DNA of 64,000 nucleotides, taken from contig CALRFD010000006.1 of NCBI GenBank assembly GCA_943356485.1, forward strand, positions 7,450 through 71,449, given 5' to 3'. Positions 2,402 through 60,144 of the stretch are shown piece after piece. This DNA is from Patescibacteria group bacterium. GTDB taxonomy: Bacteria; Patescibacteriota; Microgenomatia; Daviesbacterales; UBA10151. The stretch's first letter is position 1, and each line of letters starts with the position of its first letter. The notes under the pieces were generated by a model. It saw nothing but the letters and a program-made list of their open reading frames with translations, searched no databases and was not told where the DNA came from. The translations under genes and the position numbers were made by a program.

Positions 2402-2444
2402 AAAAACCACTAGGTGGTAATAATCAATTTACATGATTGTGGTT

Positions 2445-2474
2445 GACTTTTAGGATCAGATTAATTAAGATTTA
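2445..2474 (+). promoter_or_regulatory. putative sigma70-type promoter (TTGACT-17-TAAGAT)
   Basis: -35 TTGACT, 17-nt spacer, -10 TAAGAT, directly upstream of the hairpin and the greA-NTD-like ORF plus fusA. Confidence 0.35.
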
Positions 2475-2478
2475 CAAA

Positions 2479-2504
2479 GTGACCTCCCAGAGGGGAGGTT
2501 TTTT
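2479..2504 (+). terminator. intrinsic terminator-like hairpin CCTCCC-AGAG-GGGAGG + T6 (possible attenuator in the fusA leader)
   Basis: GC stem followed by a T-run in the AT-rich intergenic region. Confidence 0.5.
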
Positions 2505-2524
2505 ATCGGAGATAAAGATATATT

Positions 2525-2752
2525 ATGATAGACGAAAAGCTGCGACAGGAAAAATTAAAGATGTGGAGAGAGAATCTGAAACAGTTGGAAAAACAACTGC
2601 AGGAGATTCTTATCAAAAAAGGCCAGGCTGCTCAAGAAGGGGATCTTTCAGAAAATGCAGCTTACACTATGGCAATTGAGGATTCAGAAACAGCTAGGGT
2701 TAGGATTGAAGAGATAAAGAAGATCATCCGAGAGTTGGAGGCAGGGAAGTAA
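2525..2752 (+). CDS. GreA/GreB N-terminal coiled-coil domain-only mini-protein (75 aa)
   Basis: ...[34 protein letters not shown] matches the GreA N-terminal finger domain (GDLKENAEYHAAKE...RI.EL); GGAG RBS; stop overlaps the fusA ATG. Confidence 0.45.
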
Positions 2753-4890
2753 TGGCTGTTACTAAAACCAAACGAGATTATCCTCTGGATAGAATCCGTA
2801 ATATCGGAATAATTGCACATATTGATGCAGGTAAAACTACGACTACCGAAAGGATACTTTTTTATACAGGAAGAACCTATAAAATCGGTGATATTGATGA
2901 AGGGACTACTACTACCGACTGGATGGAGCAAGAAAGAGAGCGTGGTATTACTATCGTATCAGCTGCCATCACGACCTTTTGGATTCCAAAGAGCGGACCT
3001 TTTAAAGATTTAGAGACCAGGATTAACTTAATTGATACACCGGGTCATGTTGATTTTACAGCTGAGGTAGAAAGATCATTAAGAGTTCTGGATGGCGGAG
3101 TTATTGTTTTAGACTCTTCTTCCGGAGTGCAATCTCAAACAGAGACTGTTTGGAGGCAGGCTAATAAGTATAAAGTCCCTTTGATTGCTTTCTCTAATAA
3201 AATGGATGTTGTTGGCGCAGATTTTTTAGGTACAATCCAATCTGCCAGAGATAGGCTTGGGGCAAATGCGATTGCTTACAATTTGCCAATAGGTAAGGAG
3301 AATGATTTTAAGGGAGTGGTAGATTTGCTTACAAAAACAGCTTTTATTTGGGAAGGTGATGAAACAGGGGCTAAATTTCATGCAGCTGAGATTCCTCAAG
3401 ATATGGTTTCGGAAGTTGACAGCCATAGAGAAAAATTAGTGGAGGAGATTGCCGGTTCAGATGATGTGTTAATGGAAAAATACCTTGGAGGTGAGGAGAT
3501 CTCAGTTGAAGAGCTAAAAGCAGCTCTTCGAAAAGCAGTTATCGACAATAAAATTGTTCCTGTTTTAGCCGGATCATCCTTGCGGAATAAAGGTGTGCAG
3601 TTAATGCTTGACTGTGTAGTTGAATATTTGCCTTCACCGCAAGATGTGAATGAATTCACCGGAATAAATCCTCAAACGCAGGAGGAAGAAATTAGAAAAG
3701 CTGTTGCCTCCGAGCCTTTAGGCGCTCTGGCTTTTAAAATTCAAGTCGATCCACATGTAGGAAAGTTAACCTATATCAGAATTTACTCAGGTACTTTAAA
3801 GAGCGGAAGCTATGTTTATAACGCCACAAAACAGATTAAAGAAAGAGTCGGCAGGTTGCTACTCATGCACGCTAATGATCGTGAGGAGATTGAAGAGGCC
3901 TATGCAGGGGAAATAGTTGCAGCAGTTGGGCTTAAAGATACAATCACCGGTGATTCACTTTGTGACGAATCTGCTCCTTTAATTTTGGAATCGATTTCTT
4001 TCCCTGATCCTGTTATCTCTCTGGCAATCGAACCAAAAACAAAGTCTGATCAGGAAAAGTTAGGTTATGCTCTGCAGAGACTGGCAGAGGAAGATCCGAC
4101 ATTTAGAGTCAAGTCTGATCCTGAAACACAACAAACAATCATTGCCGGAATGGGTGAGCTTCAACTGGAGATCTTAGTTGACAGGATGAAACGTGAGTTT
4201 AAGGTGGAAGCAAATGTAGGTCAGCCGCAGGTTGCGTATAAAGAAACGATTCAAAAAGAAGCTTTGGGTGAGGGTAAATATATCAGACAAACAGGAGGTC
4301 GCGGACAATACGGACACTGTTTGTTACGTATTGAGCCTCTTCCCAGAGGGCAAGGAAGAGAATTTGTATCAGCTGTTGTTGGCGGATCGATTCCAAGAGA
4401 ATTTATTGGACCGATTGAAAAAGGTGTTATTGAGAAAGAAGATACAGGATTATTAGCAGGTTATCCAGTAACTGACATTAAAGTAACAGTTTATGATGGA
4501 TCTTTCCATGATGTTGATTCATCTGAGATGGCATTTAAGATCGCCGGCAGCTTAGGTTTATCTGAGGCTTCTAAAAAAGCTGACATGATTCTGCTTGAAC
4601 CTATTATGAAGGTAGAAGTTACTACCCCGGATGAATTTTTAGGAGAGATAATTGGAGACTTGTCTTCAAAAAGAGCGCAAATTTTATCATCAGAAACTAG
4701 CGGAAAGGCTAGAGTGATAATTGCTTTGGTGCCTCTGGCTGAAATGCATGGATATGCTACAGCTATCCGGTCTATGTCGCAAGGCCGGGCTACTTACTAT
4801 ATGGAAGCAGATCACTATGAGCCTGTGCCAAGCAATATTACCCAAAAGATTATTGAAACCTCCGGCTTTACCGGACGTGTCGAACACTAA
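2752..4890 (+). CDS. fusA: elongation factor G
   Basis: [15 protein letters not shown]..., 712 aa, all EF-G domains present. Confidence 0.95.
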
Positions 4891-25290: not shown

Positions 25291-25391
25291 ACATTAATAA
25301 GTATTTTCCCTATAAACTTTTCAGCAATTTGTGGTAAAATATTAAAGTTATGAAAATTTTAAATAATAATCTTTGGTTTCACTTTGGCTAT

Positions 25392-25482
25392 CCTCTTAAA
25401 AAGGGAGGCGTTTTTGTGGTTTAAGATAATTTTTAATTAAATAATCGATCCACAAGTAACCTCCCAATTGGGAGGTTTTTTT
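25392..25482 (+). promoter_or_regulatory. leader with two tandem SD-like hairpins (CCTCTT-N-GGGAGG-CGTTTTTGTGG and CCTCCC-AATT-GGGAGG-T7-GTGG) upstream of the 25506 ORF
   Basis: Two terminator-like stems whose 3' arms are GGGAGG; TTTGTGG after hairpin 1 can pair with CCACAAG before hairpin 2 (alternative structure). Confidence 0.4.
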
Positions 25483-25505
25483 GTGGTTGGAAGGAGGTGA
25501 ATATT

Positions 25506-25919
25506 ATGAAAGAAGAAATAAAAAATACAGGAATTGATCTTAGGTCTCAAGTTGCTGTTTTAACTAACAGCCTATTAGAGGCTAATAAAACAAAAGACTT
25601 AAAATTGCAATTAACATCTATGCAAAGTTTGACTGATTTATTGGCAAATACTCCTGGTGCAATAAATGCTTTAAGCCAGCTGCAAGAAAATAGAGATGTC
25701 TTGATAGATAAAAAAGTCTTATTATCACGCAACTCAAGAAAACTAATAAGCAGAGCGGTTGTATTAGGAATTGAGTCGACTGATTTAAAAGCAGAACTGA
25801 CAAATAAGGTAGAGGATGCTAAGAAAAAAGGGAGAGATAGACTAACCCGTGGAGATTTAAAAGATCTTGCTCAGGATGTTAAATCTAGACTAATTCAAAG
25901 GAGGCCTGTCCTTGTCTAA
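25506..25919 (+). CDS. hypothetical protein (~137 aa)
   Basis: GGAGGTG RBS 6 nt upstream of ATG 25506 (track ORF starts at GTG 25497); no recognisable family. Confidence 0.5.
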   Translation: MKEEIKNTGIDLRSQVAVLTNSLLEANKTKDLKLQLTSMQSLTDLLANTPGAINALSQLQENRDVLIDKKVLLSRNSRKLISRAVVLGIESTDLKAELTNKVEDAKKKGRDRLTRGDLKDLAQDVKSRLIQRRPVLV

Positions 25920-56816: not shown

Positions 56817-57179
56817 TCAATATTTTCTACCATTTCTTTGTTTTATTAATTCACGTCTTTTCCTGCTAATTATTGCTTCTACTTCCACCATTAAATCTAC
56901 AACCTCTTCAATTCTTTTCTGTGTTTGGTTTAATGTGTTGGCTAAAGTATTCAAATTAAGGTCTTCTCTAAATATTTCAGGCTGTCCTTCCGGTAGAACA
57001 AAAGACATTATAGTTCCCATTTCCCTTGCTAAATTTAATCTACCTTCCGTATCATCAGGTGCTAACCCTCTTAATATTCCAGTCTCAATCCATTGTTGAG
57101 TATAACTAAAAGGATTCGTTGCTGCTTGTTCAAATCTTTCAACCCAGACTTGCTGATGTGTTTTTACTTCTACTGCCAT
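56817..57179 (-). CDS. hypothetical protein (120 aa)
   Basis: ORF with its own leader hairpin, U7 tract and mini-uORF; no recognisable family. Confidence 0.45.
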   Translation of the reverse strand: MAVEVKTHQQVWVERFEQAATNPFSYTQQWIETGILRGLAPDDTEGRLNLAREMGTIMSFVLPEGQPEIFREDLNLNTLANTLNQTQKRIEEVVDLMVEVEAIISRKRRELIKQRNGRKY

Positions 57180-57356
57180 ATTTATCCGCCCTCTTTCTTA
57201 ATCATAAAAAAACCTCCCTTTAGGGAGGCTTGTCGCTTGGGTAATTTATTTAAAACTACCTGAACAAACCTCCCCTTCGTGAGGTAATAATAATTCCAAT
57301 AATTTGTATTGTCTTTGTTAGCATTTTTCTATAATACTACAAAGATTGTACAAAGT

Positions 57357-57743
57357 CTAGTTTTTTTCTTTCTTGCCTGTTAGTTCTTCTAGTCTTGATT
57401 GCATATGCTGAGATAGACTAGTTGCAATAACCAATGCTTTTTGTTGTAGCGAATTGTTACTGTGATTAACCATCGCTGTTAGATGGTCTGTTAAAAATCT
57501 TGCTTGTTCCGTTGCATAAGATTCTCTAGTTTCAGCATCTGGATCATATACAGATTGATCTGAGATAGTCCTCTCTCCCCCAGCTCTTCTTGCCATAATA
57601 GCAGAGTAAGCACTTTGTCTGGAAAGCCTGGTAACAGTGCGAGCCCCATACGGTTCTATTTGAGCAAGATCTGTCATTAGCCCATGTAAGGCGTCTACTA
57701 TTTGCATAGGTGCAATTTTTGTTTCTGTTGTCATTTTATTCAC
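57357..57743 (-). CDS. hypothetical protein (~125 aa)
   Basis: Likely start is ATG 57734 (MTTETK...), 9 nt after AAGGAGG; the track lists GTG 57743. Confidence 0.45.
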   Translation of the reverse strand: MNKMTTETKIAPMQIVDALHGLMTDLAQIEPYGARTVTRLSRQSAYSAIMARRAGGERTISDQSVYDPDAETRESYATEQARFLTDHLTAMVNHSNNSLQQKALVIATSLSQHMQSRLEELTGKKEKN

Positions 57744-57750
57744 CTCCTTT

Positions 57751-57838
57751 CATATTTTTTCCATAAAAAAACCTCCCATTTCGGGAGGTCTATTCCTTTC
57801 TCTTTTAGATTTTAATTAATCTAAAAAGACCTCCCTAA
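57751..57838 (-). repeat. 88-bp leader element, copy 1 (identical to 58505-58592): terminator/SD-sequestering hairpin + U7 + AUG mini-uORF, with upstream competing GGGAGG
   Basis: Exact 88/88 match. Minus strand reads UUAGGGAGGUCUUUUUAGAUUAAUUAAAAUCUAAAAGAGAAAGGAAUAGACCUCCCGAAAUGGGAGGUUUUUUUAUGG. Confidence 0.85.
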
Positions 57839-57952
57839 CGTTATCCCCCAAAAGGAGACTTTGTGTAAGAAGGCTAAGTAATAAGTTAAAATTTAGTTTT
57901 AAAGTTTTAATCATAAGATTGAATATATATTTAAATCATTTAATTGTCAAGT

Positions 57953-58507
57953 TTAAAAACAAGCAAATTGTCTTTCTAAATCTTTAATACTATTTATTCC
58001 AGGGACAACCCTGGGTTGTTTTCCTGTAGCAATTTGTTTAAAAGAAGATAGTGTTTCAGCTGAAGCTCTAATTAAATCTTGAACTAAAGCATCTGTAGAA
58101 AGTGGGTTACTATCACCATTTTCTCTTAATGCATCAATTACTTGTTCCGGTGTTGCTATTAGGCATGGCAGGTTACTAATACGAAATTTTCCAGAGTATC
58201 TTGCTCTATGATGACCATCAATAATAAATAATTGTATATTTTTGTTAGGAATAGCACAGACTAGAATAGGATTTTCATTCAAGTAGTTTATGCCTTGTTG
58301 AGCTAACCTTCGTTCTACCGAGGATCTTTTGCAACCGTCGTATTCCTCTCTAGTTTGAATTCCAAAAAGATGTATTCTTGGAATTAACAATCTAGGTGTC
58401 TTTGATTCTAAACTTTCTTTTAATTTATTCCCCTCTACGAATTGAAAGCTAGAGCAAGATAGCTGTCGTCTATCAATAATAGGTTTTTCCATTTCTAAAT
58501 AATTCAT
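57953..58507 (-). CDS. ParB/sulfiredoxin-fold (ParB-like nuclease domain) protein
   Basis: ...NPILVCAIPNKNIQLFIIDGHHRARYSGK... has the DGHHR-type motif of the ParB/Srx superfamily; 184 aa. Confidence 0.5.
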   Translation of the reverse strand: MNYLEMEKPIIDRRQLSCSSFQFVEGNKLKESLESKTPRLLIPRIHLFGIQTREEYDGCKRSSVERRLAQQGINYLNENPILVCAIPNKNIQLFIIDGHHRARYSGKFRISNLPCLIATPEQVIDALRENGDSNPLSTDALVQDLIRASAETLSSFKQIATGKQPRVVPGINSIKDLERQFACF

Positions 58508-58592
58508 ATTTTTTCCATAAAAAAACCTCCCATTTCGGGAGGTCTATTCCTTTCTCTTTTAGATTTTAATTAATCTAAAAAGACCTCCCTAA
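58505..58592 (-). repeat. 88-bp leader element, copy 2 (identical to 57751-57838); its uORF MEKI* overlaps the ATG of the ParB-like gene (ATGA)
   Basis: Exact duplicate; upstream promoter-like TTGACT-17-TACAAT at ~58700. Confidence 0.85.
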
Positions 58593-58752
58593 ATAACCAC
58601 CTGAAATGGTGGCCATAATAAGATGGAGGACGTATTTAATATTATTGATTTGATTTACTTTTAACATATATTTAAAAAAACTACAGACCTAAAGTCTATA
58701 GAATATATGAATTGTAATCCTAAATATTATAAAAGTCAAATTTGAAAAATAT

Positions 58753-59922
58753 TTATAGTAAAACTAATCTGCTGCTATGGCTTTTCAATTCATCAATTGC
58801 CTCGCCCTGTTTTAAGTGATTGTTTGTGGCAAAAGATAAATAAAAAGCATATTCGCCTAACATTCCGGTAGCCAAAGAATCTATTGCTATTAAATCTATA
58901 CCTCTTGTATGGAAAGGTTTTATCGCATTTTTTAAACTCCCGACAGTATCTCTTAGTGTAAAAACTACAGTTGTTTTATCCTGGTATTTTGTCCCATTAA
59001 TTACTCCACCTCTAAGCTTTTCTACGATTTCTTCCATGTTTAATTCCCAAGGTATACTTGGTGGTAAATACTGTGCAATTGGATATGAACCAGCAGATCT
59101 AATTCCTACACCCTGTTTATATAATCCGCTTAGAGCTTTTATTAATGGCCGATCCTCCTGATGTCCTAATAAATCCATCCAGATGGTTTCAAAACCTCCA
59201 ACTTCGCCCAGAGACTTTATTCTTGAGAGGTTTATTCCCTCGTCTGTTAAAACTTCAAGAGCTGAAAATAAGCCGCCAGGTCTGTTTGGTATTTGAGCGA
59301 TTAAGGTTGATTTACTTTCTCCTTCATGTGGGTTTGTTTCTCCATTTTGAATACCAACAACTGCAAAGCGGGTAGTATTTAAGGCGTTGTCTTGTTGGTT
59401 ATTTAATTGTTGTAAAATATCGGTCAATTGATTTATAGCTCCTGCCATGCTTGGGCCAACCCCAGCAAGTTTTGGATTTCCTGCTGCTTCCAGGATTGCA
59501 GCTACTGTACTATCTCTATCTTCAAACTTAGCATTAGGAAAGTTTTTATTGGCGTTTTTTCTAACCTGTCCTAGTGCTGTATCTTTGGATGCAACAATTT
59601 CGATTTCTTCCCTAGGGACGCCTTTTTGCCAATAAATACTTTGACTAATTGGATGGTTTATCTCGCGGATGATTCTAAAAGGAATATTTTTAAAAGCAAT
59701 TAAAGCATCATTAACTGCTCCTTCAGTAGAATTTTCTATTGGTACTATTCCCTGTTGAGCTTTTCTCTCGAATACCGCCTGACAAACTAAAGCGATATTG
59801 GAGCATGGAATTAGAGTTGTATTCTTGTATTCAGAGCCGGAGAGCCTTACTCCGGTAGCTACCTCATAGGAGAAGGATCCTTCTGGACTTAAGTATGCTA
59901 ATGTTTCTATTTGTTTATTCAT
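58753..59922 (-). CDS. pheA: prephenate dehydratase-like protein (PDT domain + tandem ACT domains)
   Basis: YLSPEGSFSYEVA..., VPIENSTEGAVND..., ...TTRFAVVG..., ACT region STLIAQIPNRPGGLFSALEVLTDEGINLSRIKS; extra C-terminal ACT-like domain. Confidence 0.7.
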   Translation of the reverse strand: MNKQIETLAYLSPEGSFSYEVATGVRLSGSEYKNTTLIPCSNIALVCQAVFERKAQQGIVPIENSTEGAVNDALIAFKNIPFRIIREINHPISQSIYWQKGVPREEIEIVASKDTALGQVRKNANKNFPNAKFEDRDSTVAAILEAAGNPKLAGVGPSMAGAINQLTDILQQLNNQQDNALNTTRFAVVGIQNGETNPHEGESKSTLIAQIPNRPGGLFSALEVLTDEGINLSRIKSLGEVGGFETIWMDLLGHQEDRPLIKALSGLYKQGVGIRSAGSYPIAQYLPPSIPWELNMEEIVEKLRGGVINGTKYQDKTTVVFTLRDTVGSLKNAIKPFHTRGIDLIAIDSLATGMLGEYAFYLSFATNNHLKQGEAIDELKSHSSRLVLL

Positions 59923-60060
59923 ATATTTTTCTCCCTGTCCGCAACGACTTCGTAAACTCGTCTTGCGTGTCGGGCGGGCATAAAAAAACCTCCGGTATAA
60001 AACGGAGGTAAGTTGATTTTCACAAAAACCAACCTCCGTTTAAACGAAGGTAAAAAAGAA
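59923..60060 (-). promoter_or_regulatory. pheA-like leader: two SD-like hairpins (CCUUCG..CGGAGG; CCUCCG-UUUUAUAC-CGGAGG-U7) then AUG of a 20-codon uORF whose UGA overlaps the pheA AUG
   Basis: Same grammar as the 88-bp element; uORF MPARHARRVYEVVADREKNI*. Confidence 0.45.
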
Positions 60061-60144
60061 ATTAAAGTTTTCTCTTTGGTTTTGCATGTAGGTTAATTTA
60101 TCAAAGATTCTTCATCTTGTCAACTATTATCTTTAGCTGTTATT

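Follow-up and report, generated by a model that had tools for sequence, protein, structure and literature searches.

Two adjacent minus-strand genes in a 64,000-nucleotide stretch of Patescibacteria group bacterium DNA (contig CALRFD010000006.1 of assembly GCA_943356485.1; referred to here as the window) are each preceded by the same 90 nt, and the question raised by this locus is what such a verbatim leader does and which signal it reads. The analysis described here indicates that the repeat very probably supplies regions 2, 3 and 4, the expression platform, of two transcription attenuators of the ribosome-mediated, leader-peptide type, element A in front of a gene for a 184-aa protein and element B in front of a gene for a 125-aa protein. 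A first-pass annotation of the window had recognized the duplicated leader with its terminator and antiterminator, had left the sensing input unnamed and had assumed that both genes share it. The input can be identified upstream of the repeat, and it differs between the two copies.

The exact repeat and its alternative folds

The copies of the repeat are located as follows, where R1 denotes the covariance model built from the related elements described below.

58503..58592, minus strand: copy A, exact repeat, expression platform (box1, hairpin P2, box2, box3 which is also the Shine-Dalgarno (SD) sequence, a run of seven U (U7) and a loading AUG); R1 95.9 bits over 58519-58637
57749..57838, minus strand: copy B, exact repeat, same platform; R1 107.1 bits over 57765-57884

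The two segments, 754 nt apart, form a direct repeat identical at 90 of 90 positions, 2 nt longer than the 88 nt originally reported. Read on the minus strand, both have the order UUAGGGAGGUCU-UUUUAGAUUAAUUAAAAUCUAAAA-GAGAAAGGAAU-AGACCUCCC-GAAAU-GGGAGGU-U7-AUGGAAAAAAUAUGA, in which UUUUAGAUUAAUUAAAAUCUAAAA is an AU hairpin and GAGAAAGGAAU a spacer. A consensus scan detected a terminator-like hairpin of 10 pairs, 5 of them G-C, with a U-run at 58545-58523 and 57791-57769. Folding of both alternatives, a check proposed with the first-pass annotation, revealed that in the isolated repeat the terminator (-13.9 kcal/mol) together with the AU hairpin (-6.7 kcal/mol) is iso-energetic with the box1:box2 antiterminator (-20.7 kcal/mol), a helix of 9 bp between GGGAGGUCU and AGACCUCCC. 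This terminator/antiterminator arrangement, including the 9-bp helix, was present as first described and was conserved in the 39 copies presented below. The motif CCTCC-N3-8-GGAGGTTTT was counted five times in the window, with none expected.

The identity between A and B starts exactly at box1 and stops at a very short upstream open reading frame (mini-uORF), while the sensor open reading frames (ORFs) and the genes differ. In L128, a related locus with the same gene order (related loci carry L numbers here), the A-type and B-type platforms are not identical to each other. Because these syntenic platforms differ and the identity is limited to the output module, the identity of A and B is best read as a recent gene conversion, or copying, of that module between neighbours. 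The sharp borders, the complete identity and the 9-bp inverted repeat (GGGAGGUCU/AGACCUCCC) could also suit a mobile or cassette repeat, resembling either a miniature inverted-repeat transposable element or an integron attC site, in which a 90-mer with 9-bp inverted termini spreads through transposition or recombination and lies before genes incidentally, and single genomes did contain several copies, often located in arrays of small orphan genes (L158, L148, L165 and L164 each have three in a few kb). However, the copies always have one orientation and a fixed distance to the start codon, with a promoter and leader ORF upstream, and they are kept before orthologs across genomes (a prephenate dehydratase (PDT) gene in five and the 184-aa protein gene in three). 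No target-site duplication was found at the repeat borders, no transposase was found, and 2.9 million viral contigs contained no match to the platform. Gene conversion explains the sharp-edged identity better, and a mobile repeat is hardly credible.

The probable sensing input lies upstream of the repeat

Upstream of the repeat each element carries a leader ORF of 30-32 codons, a fourth box (box0) and a pause-like hairpin (P1). The features of element A are listed first (an asterisk marks a stop codon).

58711..58739, minus strand: promoter-like site TTGACT-17-TACAAT; TTGACA-17-TATAAT/TATTAT is found at the matching relative place in L123 and L128
58674..58701, minus strand: 5' hairpin and U7, directly after the promoter and 6 nt before the leader AUG; conserved in L123 and L128 with a different stem sequence
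58575..58667, minus strand: leader ORF MLKVNQINNIKYVLHLIMATISGGYLGRSF, running through box0, P1 and box1; ORF kept in L123 (MLRINQINNIKYVLHFIMATISGGYLRRSF) and L128
58625..58629, minus strand: box0 CCUCC, pairing with box1 (anti-antiterminator); box0..box1 fold including P1 -19.8 kcal/mol
58595..58614, minus strand: hairpin P1, GGCCACC/GGUGGUU, within the leader ORF, a probable pause hairpin; conserved family-wide
58581..58589, minus strand: box1 GGGAGGUCU, region 2, partner of box0 or box2 according to folds and family pairing
58557..58581, minus strand: hairpin P2, AU-rich, containing the leader stop UAG; family pairing
58519..58545, minus strand: predicted intrinsic terminator, box2 AGACCUCCC, loop GAAAU, box3 GGGAGGU (also the SD) and U7; -13.9 kcal/mol
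58504..58518, minus strand: mini-uORF AUG GAA AAA AUA UGA (MEKI*), 7 nt past box3, its UGA overlapping the main AUG (ATGA at 58504-58507)
57953..58507, minus strand: gene predicted to be controlled by A, 184-aa protein with a DGHHR motif, family-less (ORF list, Pfam)

The corresponding features of element B are as follows.

57922..57950, minus strand: promoter-like site TTGACA-17-TATATT, the -10 ending 7 nt before the leader AUG
57816..57914, minus strand: leader ORF MIKTLKLNFNLLLSLLTQSLLLGDNVREVFLD, 11 Leu of 32; close relative in L128 (MSLSSALNLNNNLLLSLLTKELLLGAFAGRSF)
57866..57874, minus strand: box0 GCCUUCUUA, partner of box1; box0..box1 fold including P1 -18.4 kcal/mol
57843..57859, minus strand: hairpin P1, GUCUCC/GGGGGAU (fold, family scan)
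57765..57835, minus strand: box1, P2, box2, box3 and U7, identical to A (repeat alignment)
57736..57764, minus strand: mini-uORFs MEKI* (57750-57764) and MKGGE* (57736-57753), the latter containing the main SD AAGGAGGUG; main AUG at 57734
57357..57734, minus strand: gene predicted to be controlled by B, 125-aa orphan (Pfam, homolog search)

Several features of the first-pass annotation were recovered here: the promoter-like sites (TTGACA/TTGACT-17-TATATT/TACAAT), an SD hidden within the terminator's 3' arm, and a start codon behind the U-run that opens MEKI*, with its UGA overlapping the AUG of the 184-aa ORF in A and with MKGGE* and then the main AUG following in B. The SD occlusion and the AUG after the U-run opening mini-uORFs are conserved features of the 39 copies. 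Promoter-like matches as a class were not enriched (16 found versus 22 expected from shuffles), and the case for the sites rests on conservation in relatives. Since the leader AUG of B lies 7 nt after the -10 hexamer, the B mRNA is predicted to be leaderless or nearly so. When the whole untranslated RNA of element A was folded, box0:box1 together with the terminator was favoured (-42.7 versus -34.2 kcal/mol).

The identical 90 nt is the output module and the sensor ORFs differ, that of B being Leu-rich (MIKTLKLNFNLLLSLLTQSLLLGDNVREVFLD) and that of A not (MLKVNQINNIKYVLHLIMATISGGYLGRSF), so that A and B share a platform and not necessarily an input, contrary to what had been assumed. The B sensor appears to be a typical Leu-type leader for which the stalling signal would most likely be scarce Leu-tRNA.

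Four homologs of the 184-aa protein were found. The L123 ortholog (56% identity) retained the promoter, the leader ORF and the boxes, with a compensatory G-C to A-U change at the end of the antiterminator helix, and here the AUG that follows the U-run shares the reading frame of the gene. L128 (44% identity) contained both A-type and B-type elements in the same synteny; in its A-type element the inner hairpin arms are swapped while promoter, leader ORF, boxes and downstream gene are retained, and in its B-type element all three boxes are altered together (GCGGGG / CCCCGC / GCGGGG). Together with L123, the L128 A-type element and L158, A forms a divergent sub-type with no obvious regulatory residue and an extra 5' hairpin with U7. 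This hairpin begins 8-9 nt after the -10 (counterparts at ~2700-2745 of L123 and ~225-260 of L128) and may serve as a 5' stabiliser, as a terminator of the upstream PDT gene or as an extra attenuation step.

A family of 39 platform copies

A platform-specific pattern, scanned against metagenomes, gave 37 loci, one of them false, which with the window, L123 and L128 amounted to 39 distinct copies. The search for relatives and the covariance model that had been recommended earlier were thus both realized, and compensatory changes were seen; leader tests used the 38 copies with at least 120 nt upstream. A broader pattern, CCTCC-N3-10-GGAGG-T7-RTG, applied to a genome collection gave 120 loci from all phyla which were mostly ordinary terminators, about a dozen being useful, Candidate Phyla Radiation (CPR)-type loci. 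Over 266 kb of related loci R1 gave 70 matches, often two or three per locus, and in the window it detected A and B strongly and three further elements (C, E and F) weakly but significantly.

In the alignment of 39 sequences, 90.4% of cells were paired in the terminated state and 88.7% in the antiterminated state versus at most 64% for slid partners. The terminator helix was 99.7% paired with compensatory changes at three pairs, box1:box2 was 97.4% paired with G-C to A-U changes in three sequences, and box0:box1 was 93% paired. RNAalifold on a MAFFT alignment recovered the terminator only, because the variable hairpins were out of register, and named structures and per-sequence folds were scored instead. 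The terminator has 9-10 bp with 5-6 G-C, followed by a U-run of 6-7 nt in 37 of 39 copies. A start codon is present 0-2 nt past the U-run in 35 of 39 (none in 4); seven of these open the main ORF directly and 28 open a mini-ORF, whose stop overlaps an AUG in 11 cases and which contains a strong second SD in nine. The mini-uORF peptide is therefore not conserved; what is kept is a site, gated by the terminator hairpin, at which ribosomes would load.

An open frame of at least 25 codons runs up to box1 in 37 of 38 copies versus 47% of shuffles, the other frames having on average 1.8 and 3.4 stops. Counted from the first G of box1 GGAGG the leader stop is at +11 (16 copies), +15 (20 copies) or +16 (one copy), so that the leaders end in ...GRSF*, ...GGLFR* or ...REVFLD* according to frame, and in 37 of 38 the position would let a terminating ribosome cover segment 2. 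Because box1 is read in three frames, it is conserved as RNA and not as peptide. A -10-like hexamer was found 5-11 nt upstream of the leader AUG in 26 of 38. Leu makes up 27% of leader residues versus 7.6% of the residues of downstream proteins, and the Leu codons cluster over box0 and the 5' arm of P1, 15-48 nt before box1, which is where a stalled ribosome would be expected to free box1. P1 was found in 37 of 38 copies (mean dG -10.4, mean z -3.6) with 34 distinct stems, and the variable pair of P2 was A-U in 21, G-C in 8, G.U in 7 and A.C in none.

The covariation of these two hairpins, and a platform like that of many transcriptional riboswitches, might suggest a metabolite-binding riboswitch in which an aptamer in the leader RNA selects terminator or antiterminator and translation is irrelevant. 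The platform had indeed first been called riboswitch-like or attenuator-like. However, the conserved structures are two simple hairpins with free stems and loops, P2 being a simple AU hairpin with a variable loop, and there is no multi-helix junction, no conserved unpaired core and no conserved aptamer; the Rfam search at gathering threshold returned no family in the region, and no riboswitch family was matched. The conserved upstream segment is an intact ORF in 37 of 38 copies with its stop fixed beside box1, and its peptide composition follows the pathway in which the downstream enzyme acts, a match that an RNA binding a ligand would have no need of. The attenuator half of the description is the probable one, and a riboswitch is highly improbable.

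Another possibility is that the hydrophobic peptide of about 30 residues (MSK..DLKR.E.LL.LLL.LL.GA.LG) is itself the product, a membrane peptide or toxin, with the hairpin as its terminator and the downstream gene transcribed by leaky read-through. The Leu-type peptides have a polar N-terminus, commonly MSK, and about 20 hydrophobic residues like one transmembrane helix, and a leader peptide acting in trans is known (peTrpL, PMC7298713). Against this, the C-terminal residues are derived from box1 in three frames (GRSF*, GGLFR*, REVFLD*), box1 can pair with the terminator's 5' arm (97% of cells complementary), and sister classes of the same design are too short for a membrane helix (Ile-type, 20-23 aa; Phe-type, 15-17 aa; aromatic-type). 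Third codon positions are not more variable, and no curated protein family was matched, NCBIfam having no family for any leader peptide. Such a peptide as the sole product is very unlikely; a small-membrane-peptide function and attenuation could coexist.

Proposed mechanism of attenuation

Direct observation covers the sequences, the complementarities and the ORFs, how far these are conserved, and the agreement between leader class and pathway; from them the following course of events can be proposed. Transcription would start at the sigma-70-type promoter and the short leader ORF would be translated at once, the ribosome passing box0, P1 (a probable pause site) and box1 before reaching the stop 11-16 nt past the box1 start. 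A ribosome at the stop codon would cover box1, whereupon box2 and box3 would pair to form the U7 terminator with the SD buried. Were the leader not translated, box0:box1 would form and the outcome would again be termination. If the ribosome stalled over the codons of box0 and P1, box1 would be free to capture box2 once made and no terminator would arise. In this antiterminated state box3 would be exposed as an SD 7 nt before the loading AUG, and ribosomes entering there would reach the main start directly, via the overlapping stop/start (AUGA) or past a second SD. Folding of elements A, B, C, D and E gave mutually exclusive four-box pairings, in which box1:box2 arises once box2 has been transcribed and masking of box1 yields the terminator.

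Leader class and downstream pathway

Three classes of leader peptide, Leu, Ile and aromatic, can be told apart, and wherever the gene that follows is recognizable it fits the class, as listed below.

Leu-type, before 2-isopropylmalate synthase: L148:2434 (549.6 bits versus an NCBIfam cutoff of 532); L167, HMGL-like
Ile-type, before a citramalate-synthase-like gene: L148:8116
Ile/Val/Leu-mixed, before acetolactate synthase: L151:1013
Aromatic-type, before 3-deoxy-D-arabino-heptulosonate 7-phosphate (DAHP) synthase: L165:851; L091
Aromatic/Phe, before prephenate dehydratase: L158:2715 and element D of the window

Enrichment of regulatory codons over segment 1 was observed for B and the family (Leu), D (Phe), C (Ile) and E (aromatic) and was not evident for A. 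In D, and in the relatives before leuA, cimA-like, ilvB, DAHP synthase and PDT genes, the gene and the sensed amino acid share a pathway, which is not so in A and B; a pathway-matched target is usual in the attenuator family and not strictly defining. Most controlled genes encode proteins of 55-200 aa without a family. The family would thus be predicted to sense leucine, isoleucine or aromatic amino-acid supply and to control matching biosynthetic genes together with many tiny family-less genes.

In ermC segment 2 is freed by a ribosome that stalls on segment 1, and its pairing with segment 3 unmasks an SD in segment 4, and in ermK transcriptional and translational attenuation are combined. 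The four-segment design here is the one known from ermC-type leaders, in 35 of 39 copies box3 forms a perfect SD with an AUG 7 nt behind it, leader A has no obvious regulatory amino acid and the targets are mostly non-biosynthetic, so that one could suppose a translational attenuator of this type, or a nascent-peptide sensor, with stalling caused by a drug, by a metabolite that acts on the nascent chain or by failed membrane insertion, SD unmasking as the main effect and the U-run as a spacer. However, the hairpin with U6-7 fully fits an intrinsic terminator, and the same module is found before pheA, leuA, cimA-like, ilvB and aroG-type genes, where the cognate amino acid is enriched in the leaders. 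In ermC and ermK the signal is a macrolide-stalled ribosome and the target a resistance gene, whereas the leader composition found here points to aminoacyl-tRNA supply. SD unmasking is already part of the mechanism proposed above, from which this alternative differs only in the signal and in denying termination; it is very unlikely.

Leaders containing Cys were also seen with the same design, namely MIIVNNSVCCCAPLS (L116, ~3440-3555), MKFRKAVNCSCTIPS (L015, ~4060-4173) and ...KKDCCSEDNQGGCCCS* (L031, ~650-746; fused to the end of an upstream ORF), which suggests that a putative Cys class of leader exists. In L158, L148, L165, L164 and L095, arrays of two or three small genes were contained within 1-3 kb, each gene with its own promoter and leader. 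Several of the small proteins belong to recurrent families, among them one with ...FPGER...NPEY... (L144/L145/L165) and one with ...GGDxRSVAG...GWQPDY(D/E)ARDAR (L148/L150). Six metagenome-assembled genomes (L023, L043, L058, L065, L109 and L116) of low G+C content, labelled uncultured Gammaproteobacteria or Pseudomonadales, contained typical leader-family members and CPR-like gene content; these labels may be wrong.

Further elements in the window

At least four further elements of the A/B design were found in the window, the design preceding four consecutive minus-strand genes (A, B, C and D) and two plus-strand genes (E and F).

57182..57324, minus strand: element C, Ile-type leader MLTKTIQIIGIIITSRRGGLFR, boxes GGGGAGGUUUG / CAAGCCUCCC / GGGAGG-U7, mini-uORF MIKKEGG; R1 38.1 bits; before a 120-aa ORF (56817-57179)
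59919..60123, minus strand: element D, putative classical Phe attenuator before a gene for PDT with an ACT domain (58753-59922); promoter 60095-60123, leader MQNQRENFNFFFTFV* at 60040-60087
25350..25500, plus strand: element E, aromatic-type leader MKILNNNLWFHFGYPLKKGGVFVV*, same box design, mini-uORF containing the main SD; R1 32.0 bits; before a 137-aa ORF (25506-25919)
2414..2505, plus strand: element F, degenerate relative, terminator CCUCCC-AGAG-GGGAGG-U6 and weak box1; R1 31.8 bits; before a 75-aa GreA-N-like ORF, between rpsG and fusA

Each element has an upstream CCUCC-like box0 able to pair with box1, and a short ORF which starts near the promoter, crosses box0 and ends beside box1 (in D just before it). 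The bases that flank box1 vary from element to element but remain able to pair with those 5' of the terminator (UCU/AGA in A and B, UUUG/CAAG in C and, for D, CGGAGGU/ACCUCCG), E included. In element F the GreA-N-like ORF is preceded by a 6-codon ORF, MIVVDF*; its product is a 75-aa stand-alone GreA/GreB N-terminal domain protein (PF03449) whose locus, 2414-2752 (+), is inserted between rpsG and fusA.

Element D has the boxes ACCUUCG/CGGAGGU/ACCUCCG/CGGAGGU-U7. Its relatives in four orthologous loci (47-75% protein identity) all have a leader of the form M..F.FFFTF(A/V)* and the same four boxes, and the leader starts 7 nt after an extended -10 (TGATAAATT). Because the Phe leader, its 5' position and the boxes are kept in these four loci, D is read from its sequence as a classical Phe attenuator that is conserved and whose leader peptide is leaderless. 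The covariance model R1 gave no match to D, which is therefore related to A and B by design and not by detectable sequence. In D a 20-codon uORF (59919-59981, minus strand) has a UGA overlapping the main AUG. This uORF, MPARHARRVYEVVADREKNI*, contains a G+C-rich hairpin and, since the closest relative L123 carries only MEKNI* at this place, it looks like a recent insertion of ~45 nt.

A permissive scan with Rfam RF01859 (Phe_leader, threshold 55 bits) gave sub-threshold matches of 28.9 bits for B, 27.2 for A, 26.0 for C and 20.4 for D, because boxes and logic are like those of E. coli pheL-pheA. The likeness is closest for D: both have a leader rich in the regulatory amino acid ending in ...FFFTF and four CCUCC/GGAGG-type segments with the terminator after segment 4, the E. 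coli boxes GGGAGGCG, GGCCUCCC and GGGGGGCC-U6 being of the kind found in D. The 15-mer TTCTTTTTTACCTTC, which encodes FFFTF, is identical in element D and E. coli pheL (L170, 1600-1745), and this identity could reflect either deep homology or convergence forced by Phe codons. In contrast, pheL has its own SD and a 5' untranslated region, whereas in the window family 6-9 nt separate the -10 from the leader AUG (leaderless), and pheL-pheA has a separate SD ~20 nt past the terminator, whereas in the window family the 3' arm of the terminator is itself the SD with an AUG right after the U-run.

The genes behind A and B

The first-pass annotation had called the 184-aa gene ParB-like. This label could not be confirmed, the DGHHR motif being its sole support: no Pfam family was assigned, sequence and profile searches gave no match in PDB, and the AlphaFold model was of low confidence (predicted local distance difference test score, pLDDT, of 57) with a best Foldseek E value of 0.73 and no fold match. 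The gene adjoins a prephenate dehydratase gene in three genomes (57953-59922, minus strand, of the window; L123; 3001-4447 of L131), the L131 pair having no leader. This adjacency hints that the role of the protein is tied to the metabolism of aromatic amino acids and not to DNA functions of the ParB type. A homolog search with the 125-aa protein returned nothing beyond itself.

Discussion

A number of observations weigh against the attenuator reading of A and B. Neither gene lies in amino-acid biosynthesis, one encoding the family-less DGHHR protein and the other an orphan; leader A is not enriched in any single amino acid (Leu 4/30), and the A-type hairpin and U7 right behind the promoter resemble a terminator in their own right. 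The Leu-type peptides look like single-pass membrane peptides, and part of their Leu-richness could be a by-product of CUCC/CUU-rich boxes in frame. The first 12 leader codons have no third-position excess (entropy 12.0/10.6/11.1), and their pairwise differences are 212 synonymous versus 1708 nonsynonymous. Much of box1 and box2 was set by the search pattern, so that covariation within the family is thin for these helices, with one double-change pair and four sequences which break it. Finally, the organisms are uncultured, and we infer leader translation, termination at U7 and a response to amino acids from sequence.

The leu, ilvGMEDA and ilvBN leaders of Proteobacteria and the ilvBNC leader of Corynebacterium (PMC11857589) likewise encode hydrophobic peptides with Leu/Ile/Val runs before the first branched-chain enzymes. 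No sequence relationship to them was found, with no match to Rfam Leu_leader or to an NCBIfam leader peptide, and unlike them the window-family leaders also precede many small non-biosynthetic genes, including those of A and B. Leaderless leader peptides in attenuators have been described in Deinococcus deserti (PMC4007540), mycobacteria (bioRxiv 10.1101/834739) and Corynebacterium glutamicum (PMC3890552), in which, as predicted for the family described here, the leader is translated without an SD from the 5' end of the transcript and its composition mirrors the regulated pathway. They differ in belonging to other phyla with unrelated sequences, in serving amino-acid and tRNA-synthetase genes, and in having no orphan arrays and no shared stereotyped platform. 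Gene regulation in Patescibacteria/CPR has been called virtually unknown (PMC11665869), and no description of attenuators in Patescibacteria was found in the literature. Read as an attenuator, the system represents a known mechanism, in a variant and a lineage that are both new for it: a modular platform with a built-in SD whose targets are mostly small family-less genes.

The assignment to the CPR follows from the relatives, which are labelled Curtissbacteria, Levyibacteriota, Beckwithbacteria or Roizmanbacteria or come from groundwater small-filter fractions, and from the absence of L30, the S5 gene being followed directly by L15 (17081-18022, plus strand), consistent with CPR/Patescibacteria. 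Tentatively, and with the balance somewhat against it, one may go further and suppose that a small number of attenuator classes (Leu, Ile, aromatic, perhaps Cys) form a main genome-wide regulatory device in these ultra-small host-dependent bacteria, at about one per 10 kb or of the order of a hundred per genome, wired to the remaining biosynthetic genes and to dozens of lineage-specific small proteins as an amino-acid-starvation regulon, with the platform copied between genes as a portable module, of which the verbatim duplication in A and B would be an example. If true, the cell would read host-derived amino-acid supply via tRNA charging and switch on a set of effector genes.

The attenuator would here be reused as a module, with one output platform, different sensor peptides and verbatim copying between neighbours, and with the built-in SD and loading AUG a single hairpin would gate both transcription and translation. 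The family is recognisable from sequence (promoter, leaderless leader ORF, four CCUCC/GGAGG boxes, U7), which could allow regulons to be annotated across thousands of uncultured genomes. For the family-less small proteins, a tie to Leu, Ile or aromatic scarcity would provide a first functional handle, and for Patescibacteria/CPR the family would offer a concrete, testable regulatory mechanism.

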